Positions 49,213 through 49,797 of a DNA stretch of 64,000 nucleotides are shown here, piece by piece. Position numbers and translations under genes: made by a program. Source of the stretch: Escherichia phage ECO103 4-12-1; the sequence record OR844650; one strand, 5' to 3'. The first letter of the stretch is position 1. Each line of letters opens with the position of its first letter. The notes below the pieces were generated by a model. That model was given only the letters and a program-made list of their open reading frames with translations, was not told the DNA's origin and searched no databases.

Positions 49213-49797
49213 TTATCGTGTTACCTTACTTGCTTCTACATCACGCTTTTTATAGTACTGATTCCAGATATTGCGGGTTAAACCGTAATCAAGTACTTTA
49301 ATAAGGCCGTTGCGATCCTGGCCGATATTCTGTTTTCTGATATCTCTTATCGTTAGTGTTGACAGTGTATCATCAACGTGTTGTAGTGCATCAGCAAAGC
49401 GGTGCTGGCGTTCAATTGCATTACGTTTAATATTGTACTTTAATTCGTTGCACGCGTTAACGTGCTTTACACTGCCTTTACTTGCAGTACTCAACCGATC
49501 CATAACGATAAACATATTATCAGGATCGCATAAATGCATATGCACCTTTGCAAAGTACTGTTTCAATTGAGGGCGGTCATAGTCTAAAAAATTCCATACC
49601 TTACATTCAGTTTCATTTTGTTCTACACCCGCATCACAATTGGCGACCTTAATCACTAACCGATCATTTAAAGCGAATACAATACGGGAAGAACCCGCAC
49701 CGATGATCTCCAGACCAGCTAACCGACAAGCTGAAAGGATCTCTTTGTTGGTTTCCATTTCTGACAGGGTACGGATGAATTTAGTATAATTACGCAT
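49213..49797 (-). CDS. protein kinase-like fold protein (small atypical kinase)
   Basis: Start MRNYTKF at 49797; GAGSSRIVF (G-loop), LVIKV (Lys), IRDIRKQNIG (catalytic loop), LDYG 19 aa after RD (DFG-like). Confidence 0.5.
   Translation of the reverse strand: MRNYTKFIRTLSEMETNKEILSACRLAGLEIIGAGSSRIVFALNDRLVIKVANCDAGVEQNETECKVWNFLDYDRPQLKQYFAKVHMHLCDPDNMFIVMDRLSTASKGSVKHVNACNELKYNIKRNAIERQHRFADALQHVDDTLSTLTIRDIRKQNIGQDRNGLIKVLDYGLTRNIWNQYYKKRDVEASKVTR

Follow-up and report, generated by a model that had tools for sequence, protein, structure and literature searches.

Is a phage protein that stops shortly after its metal-binding motif still a kinase, and what might it phosphorylate? The question is raised by a gene in 64,000 nucleotides (nt) of Escherichia phage ECO103 4-12-1 (record OR844650); this whole stretch is referred to as the window, and coordinates are counted from its first letter. 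The gene occupies 49213..49797 on the minus strand, stop codon included, and encodes 194 amino acids (aa). A preliminary description, made from the letters alone, had proposed a compact kinase-like protein of about 195 aa here and had not given the strand; the open reading frame (ORF) is real and runs from an ATG at 49797-49795 through 194 codons to a stop codon at 49215-49213. Its product, here called the mini-kinase, has a protein-kinase-like (PKL) fold, and the residues of phosphotransfer are conserved across its family. It is somewhat probable that the mini-kinase is a minimal kinase that is active, constitutively switched on and produced as infection begins, with a protein as the likelier kind of substrate.

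Evidence for the fold from the single sequence was weak but consistent. The Pfam Pkinase model (PF00069) matched the mini-kinase with E=0.0024 and 17.8 bits, missing the gathering threshold of 31.7 bits, and matched 6 of 56 relatives at E<=0.01 (best 5.7e-6). A phmmer search of the single sequence against the PDB gave protein kinases for all of the best 60 matches (top E=0.012), and the PADLOC model of the PD-T4-6 kinase matched with E=2.4e-4; the NCBIfam and PADLOC scans gave nothing specific apart from such weak kinase matches. The family-level evidence is regarded as decisive. A profile of 14 relatives matched MKK4 in the PDB with E=1.6e-4, and MKK7 across residues 29-183, and a profile of 56 relatives matched MKK4 with E=1.6e-5, followed by MST, PLK4, FGFR and BTK. 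The significant matches of the family profiles were protein kinases only; the non-kinases among the PDB matches listed were two haemoglobin chains, in which no domain passed the threshold. An AlphaFold2 model built on a 14-sequence alignment was unusable, with a predicted local distance difference test score (pLDDT) of 50, and one built on a 121-sequence alignment reached a pLDDT of 95 and a predicted template modelling (TM) score of 0.91. Foldseek aligned this model with probability 1.0 to APH(2''), Lpg2603, OSR1, PknB, MEK1 and CDK2, the top structural matches being aminoglycoside phosphotransferases (APH). The preliminary description had left its kinase-like fold to structure prediction and profile searches, and AlphaFold2, Foldseek and the PDB profiles all favour it.

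The model has two lobes. Two N-terminal helices (residues 4-12 and 17-26) precede an N-lobe whose sheet includes strands 1-3 (residues 30-34, 38-42 and 47-52) and strand 5 (residues 96-100), together with a long helix C (residues 55-74). The glycine-rich loop, the strand-3 lysine (K50) and the helix-C glutamate (E64) are placed in strands 1-3 and helix C, as expected of a PKL protein. The C-lobe contains helix D (residues 108-120), helix E (residues 130-145), the catalytic loop (residues 152-159), two short strands corresponding to strands 7 and 8 (residues 158-160 and 166-168), the metal-binding DYG (residues 170-172) and a single final helix (residues 175-182); it carries the catalytic aspartate, an asparagine five residues on, and a DFG-like metal-binding aspartate.

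Conservation was counted in the 121-sequence alignment, obtained from an exhaustive hidden Markov model (HMM) search, whose members are 20-95% identical to the query. All of the motifs quoted in the preliminary description were found, and in the order given there: G33-A-G35-S-S-R38-I-V-F, V48-I-K50-V, I150-R-D152-I-R-K-Q-N157-I-G159 and L169-D170-Y-G172. In the glycine-rich loop (G33-A-G35-S36-S37-R38; 49684..49701, minus strand), between strands 1 and 2 of the model, G33 is kept in 108/121, G35 and S36 in 114/121 each, and R38, which occupies the place of the third glycine of the canonical GxGxxG, is invariant (121/121). K50, the ATP-anchoring lysine within V-I-K-V-A of strand 3 (49648..49650, minus strand), is likewise present in every sequence. 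At the start of helix C (G57-x-x-Q60-N61-x-x-E64; 49606..49629, minus strand), G57, Q60 and E64 are invariant and N61 is found in 117/121; E64 presumably forms a salt bridge with K50.

In the catalytic loop (D152-I-R-K-Q-N157-I-G159; 49321..49344, minus strand), D152 is kept in 117 of the 121 sequences, with glutamate in another three, and G159 in 120. In the alignment with MKK4, its HRD aspartate corresponds to D152, its catalytic asparagine to N157 and its DFG aspartate to D170. The loop had been called HRD-like, and two details of this need mending: the arginine of the "RD" (R151) is not conserved, and the lysine, likewise unconserved, lies at D+3 instead of D+2. Position 157 is asparagine within the clade of Asteriusvirus and RaK2 sequences, with a family-wide distribution of H45/N37/S26/Q10. 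In the DFG-equivalent D170-Y-G172 (49282..49290, minus strand), D170 and G172 are each kept in 120/121, and position 171 is tyrosine in 97 sequences and phenylalanine in 17. The spacing of 19 residues reported for this motif is right if counted from R151; from D152 to D170 it is 18. Judged from this alignment, the motifs exceed chance, in that the motif residues are the ones conserved across the 121 relatives. The fixed phosphotransfer residues, taken with a private signature (GxGSSR, GxxQNxxE), form the pattern that would be expected of an active enzyme family and not of a pseudokinase.

The protein ends 22 residues beyond G172, a little sooner than the 25 or so first estimated. This C-terminal tail (residues 173-194; 49216..49281, minus strand) consists of the one helix 175-182, in which Y182 is kept in 98/121, and a basic end. 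As first supposed, most of the C-lobe is absent: helices D and E, the catalytic loop, strands 7 and 8, DYG and the last helix are all that is present, and the model lacks an activation segment, an APE motif and helices F to I. Is this a truncation? Many of the longer metagenomic relatives chain two to four full-length modules in one polypeptide, each covering HMM positions ~5-185 and ending near position 180-186 (for example three modules in 693 aa in P0021 and four in 923 aa in P0023; also P0027, P0030 and P0032), and the ~190-aa unit is therefore a complete domain. The mini-kinase domain truly ends ~15 residues past DYG, and the "missing C-lobe" is a trait of the family. To our knowledge, these ~190-aa modules are among the smallest kinase-like domains. 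In some relatives (P0176, P0179, P0183 and P0187) N-terminal regions of ~150-250 aa without a Pfam match are fused to the module; when 18 longer relatives were scanned with Pfam, the only matches were sub-threshold (Mga HTH, NTP_transf_2, VapB and ParBc_2) and uninformative for function.

The family corresponds to PHROG 4301, labelled as of unknown function, which matches the mini-kinase with E=1e-41 over residues 3-187 and is matched by 56 of 56 aligned relatives; neither Pfam nor NCBIfam has a family covering these relatives. In the exhaustive search the number of cluster representatives rose from 14 at E<=1e-30 to 244 at E<=1e-10 and 2072 at E<=1e-3; ordinary kinases may be among the weakest of these. 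The contigs with relatives that were examined resemble large phages, with genes for gp32, DnaB, RecA, ribonucleotide reductase, RtcB and T4-like small proteins. At three of five loci in such contigs the gene sits in long arrays of 50-130-aa ORFs, and the five loci share no neighbouring gene except arrays of tiny ORFs. Structural neighbours in BFVD include proteins of RaK2 (TM 0.84) and Ralstonia RP12 and two CBB proteins.

Closer to the window, the 1.6 kb around the gene are 89-98% identical to ~40 Escherichia/Salmonella Asteriusvirus jumbo phages, including PBECO4, 121Q, G17, BF17, slurp01 and Sharanji. The window itself comes from a jumbo coliphage of this genus, and the mini-kinase has the same sequence (100% identity) as Sharanji gp063 (WNN14351.1), G17_00012 (QBO61508.1) and the CRJP21 copy. 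Distant copies, sharing 36-42% identity, are carried by Klebsiella phages of the RaK2 type, by Salmonella 7t3/PHA46, by Erwinia phages and by Xanthomonas XbC2. Against the 121Q orthologue, the ratio of nonsynonymous to synonymous substitution rates (dN/dS) is 0.16, with a dS of 0.33; the gene is under purifying selection. The kinase call itself has already been published, is in databases and is not new: the orthologues of ph0011, fEgEco12, Turkey3, Turkey5, fENko-Kae01 and Muenster are labelled protein kinase or Ser/Thr kinase in GenBank, and UniProt names the PBECO4 copy "Protein kinase domain-containing protein", while most other orthologue records read "hypothetical protein". Two copies stand out. 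The PBECO4 copy (UniProt L7TKF0) is annotated as 147 aa, yet all 194 residues align without a break by tblastn, and in phage CMSTMSU (MH494197.1, 116446-117023) the copy matches in two pieces with 78% identity, has no annotated gene and is possibly decayed. Some relatives may have lost the gene or had it mis-annotated.

When would the mini-kinase be made? Several phage records carry two copies of the gene, because it lies in the direct terminal repeat. In fEgEco12 it is found at 16161-16742, inside a 20,993-bp terminal repeat for which PhageTerm and restriction mapping gave experimental confirmation (PMC13070987), and terminal-repeat features overlie the gene in vB_Ec-M-J, fENko-Kae01 and Muenster. 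The gene is placed among tiny same-strand, early-type genes of the ~21-kb repeat. Upstream of it, a strong sigma-70-like promoter by consensus (TTGACA-17-TACTAT; 50100..50128, minus strand) precedes the adjacent gene, and a transcript from this promoter is likely to read through into the mini-kinase gene. A second promoter, nearly identical to it, occurs at 50376-50404 on the same strand, both having the form TTGACA-17-TA(C/T)TAT. A weak sigma-70-like promoter (TTGCCA-17-TAAGAT; 49826..49854, minus strand), a consensus match only (9/12), overlaps the 3' end of the upstream gene, whose ORF ends at 49829. Given the terminal-repeat location and the sigma-70-like promoters, host RNA polymerase most likely transcribes the mini-kinase gene as soon as the DNA has entered the cell.

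Translation would start from a ribosome-binding site read from the sequence as GGAGAA (49804..49809, minus strand), 6 nt upstream of the ATG. A 213-aa version beginning at a TTG at 49854, given by a mechanical ORF list, was rejected; since the methionine equivalent to that of MRNY is the first residue in 13 of 14 aligned sequences, the 194-aa form is taken as the gene. Downstream, a terminator-like hairpin (49174..49201, minus strand) lies 12 nt past the stop codon, and the G17 record annotates a terminator 15 nt beyond the end of its orthologue's coding sequence. The hairpin overlaps the sigma-70-like promoter of the next gene (TTGACT-17-TATTAT with an extended TG; 49194-49166, minus strand), whose -35 element is inside the hairpin stem, forming a compact terminator/promoter junction at 49166-49201. 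The two strong promoters belong to near-identical promoter-plus-leader cassettes (50346-50404 and 50069-50128, minus strand) that stand before two small genes upstream of the mini-kinase gene and follow the pattern TTGACAGTACTCAA[T/A]TGTTTTAGTA[T/C]TAT ... ACCAACACGGG[A/G]GAAA.CAAAATG. The cassette occurs twice in the window, with 0 copies expected by chance; as there are merely two, a shared extended early-promoter motif was rejected. The two small genes behind the cassettes show no paralogue resemblance by eye.

The closest functional precedent is the T7 gp0.7 kinase (T7K; PHROG 2828/15752), likewise a phage-encoded, compact kinase-like domain. T7K is an early (class I) gene. Read from its sequence, it ends ~20 residues past its DFG-like motif, as the mini-kinase does, and the motif spacing is identical: K93-D195, D195-N200 and D195-D213 of T7K are 102, 5 and 18 residues apart, as are the corresponding pairs of K50, D152, N157 and D170. 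BFVD neighbours at E of ~1e-6 to 1e-5 include T7-type kinases, namely the Pantoea SK1 kinase (E=1.4e-6, TM 0.56), A0A7L7SMK1, RSB1 and Xylella Cota. Membership of the T7K family was nevertheless rejected. PHROG 2828 gave no match to the mini-kinase at E<=1 and matched 0 of 56 relatives, and the positive controls behaved as expected, with T7K matching PHROG 2828 at 1.6e-169 and Sharanji gp144 matching 15752 at 1e-97 and 2828 at 6.9e-16. The hhalign probability was 3% against T7 gp0.7 (N-lobe only) and 1% against Sharanji gp144, both weak negatives in that a family profile was compared with a single sequence. T7K has a DPV motif (PMC13645617) where the mini-kinase has DYG, and T7K of Autographiviridae members carries a C-terminal shutoff/DNA-binding domain, whereas the 194-aa mini-kinase has no extra domain.

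A true T7K homologue does exist in these phages: Sharanji gp144 (WNN14432.1; 383-1057 of locus L013), of 224 aa, is encoded ~46 kb from the mini-kinase gene. In the window, tblastn and HMM searches of all 277 ORFs detected neither a T7K homologue nor a paralogue of the mini-kinase. Asteriusviruses thus appear to encode two distinct compact kinases that are unrelated at the sequence level. T7K was reported to be a promiscuous anti-defence kinase that modifies the greater part of the host proteome by phosphorylation and neutralises Retron-Eco9 and DarTG1, and the same Nature 2026 paper stated that jumbophage T7K homologues (G17, Munch) exist, their function being open (PMC13645617). That remark most likely concerns the gp144-type gene and not the mini-kinase.

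The eukaryotic-like protein kinases (PF00069/PF07714; MKK4, MKK7, PknB) are the best sequence-profile matches and share the glycine-rich loop, strand-3 lysine, helix-C glutamate, catalytic aspartate and asparagine and metal-binding aspartate in the same order and spacing. The mini-kinase differs from them in its score below the Pfam gathering level, in a core of ~165 aa as opposed to ~250-300 aa, in the altered HRD region and lysine position described above, and in the absence of the activation segment with APE and of helices F to I (helix F and the GHI helical subdomain). APH(2'') enzymes are of ~300 aa and have a helical substrate-binding subdomain that the mini-kinase lacks, and no APH family matched it in Pfam or NCBIfam. 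Bud32, RIO and TkArkI are other minimal kinases, as are the bacterial effectors OspG, NleH and HopBF1. Kinship with E. coli YrbL (PF10707), a lead that came from the match of one tandem-module relative (7.5e-7), was rejected at an hhalign probability of 0.3%.

How would such a small enzyme work? ATP would bind beneath the G33xG35SSR38 loop and be anchored by the K50-E64 pair, D152 would serve as the catalytic base, and Mg2+ would be held by N157 and D170. Because the activation segment, the P+1 loop and helices F to I are missing, the mini-kinase should be constitutively active, and its substrate recognition should be non-canonical and probably not very sequence-specific. Host proteins, and possibly also phage proteins, would be phosphorylated on Ser/Thr (or Tyr) for takeover or anti-defence, as is done by T7 gp0.7; on our analysis, host-protein phosphorylation is the most probable role. 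Several points weigh against this reading as a whole. The Foldseek TM-scores of 0.33-0.45 indicate modest similarity to solved kinases. Two thirds of the wider family have a residue other than asparagine at position 157; the histidine and arginine of HRD are unconserved, position 150 being I/P/A/V and position 151 glycine in 59/121; the canonical lysine at D+2 is absent, and the one at D+3 (K155) is found in just 32/121. A redundant role is unlikely, because Asteriusviruses already have the T7K homologue gp144. Early expression is read from position and consensus promoters only, and the literature yielded no Asteriusvirus transcriptome or phosphoproteome and no experiment or activity report on any member of the mini-kinase family.

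The main rival keeps the fold and the activity and changes the substrate to a non-protein one, which might be a small molecule (aminoglycoside-like, a sugar, a nucleoside, a nucleotide or an immune signal), a lipid or lipopolysaccharide sugar, or RNA. The elements by which canonical kinases bind peptides (activation segment, P+1 loop and helix G) are all missing; R38, G57, Q60, N61 and Y182 are without protein-kinase counterparts and could form a dedicated substrate pocket; and APH enzymes are the top structural matches. The sequence profiles, however, match MKK4/7, MST, PLK4, FGFR and BTK and not the APH or choline-kinase families, and the histidine at D-2 in the HxDxxxxN motif of those families is absent, as the residues at position 150 attest. 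T7K, similarly short after its DFG-like motif, is a proven and promiscuous protein kinase (PMC13645617), and at the loci examined no metabolic or nucleic-acid gene was seen as a conserved neighbour. A non-protein substrate is accordingly judged unlikely, although it is to be taken seriously. Slightly less doubtful is a broader proposal, in which PHROG 4301 is a large uncurated family, widespread in large phages, of self-contained ~190-aa kinase modules, often two to four per polypeptide, that lack the activation segment and helices F to I and bear their own invariant signature. The family would act at the very beginning of infection, on substrates of another class than those of T7K, a kinase likewise encoded by these phages; some particular component of defence or signalling, or else a molecule other than a protein, would then be a possible target.

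Two further explanations dispense with kinase activity or with the fold. The mini-kinase could be a pseudokinase or a non-canonical enzyme, acting as a nucleotide-binding scaffold, a decoy or an inhibitor of a host protein, or catalysing another transfer such as AMPylation. The C-lobe is indeed extremely reduced, lacking helix F, which is the spine anchor of canonical kinases, and the metal-binding asparagine position varies (H/N/S/Q), but K50 and E64 are conserved in 100%, D152 in 97% and D170 in 99% of sequences down to ~20% identity, which makes this explanation improbable. That there is no kinase fold at all, the motifs of a small phage protein resembling those of kinases by chance, might have been suggested by the sub-threshold Pfam score of the single sequence and by the low pLDDT of the first model. 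The confident model from the deep alignment, PDB profile matches that are almost exclusively protein kinases, and conservation that coincides exactly with the catalytic positions render it scarcely credible. An active minimal protein kinase is thus the reading that we favour.

What does the mini-kinase add? It would not surprise specialists and contradicts nothing in current understanding, but it defines a second, even smaller phage kinase family than that of T7K, to which it is unrelated in sequence. Contributed here are a confident fold, a family-wide catalytic signature and the recognition that the ~190-aa unit is a whole module; the family is also equated with PHROG 4301 and set apart from that of T7K, and the gene is placed in the terminal repeat. 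The finding is timely in that phage kinases were recently shown to be broad anti-defence weapons (T7K; PMC13645617). In jumbo coliphages the gene is part of the DNA that enters the cell first, and the presence of two kinases per phage raises the possibility of divided labour. Sharanji and G17 grow on E. coli K-12, making the mini-kinase experimentally tractable, and the module offers a natural test of the minimum kinase fold needed for catalysis.

Elsewhere in the window, the region from 9 to 36 kb is densely filled with ORFs of 150-207 aa on the same strand. Paralogous ORFs of ~150-190 aa form tandem arrays on the minus strand, with eight members at 18601-27879 and three at 34472-36443 (blastp E<=1e-5).
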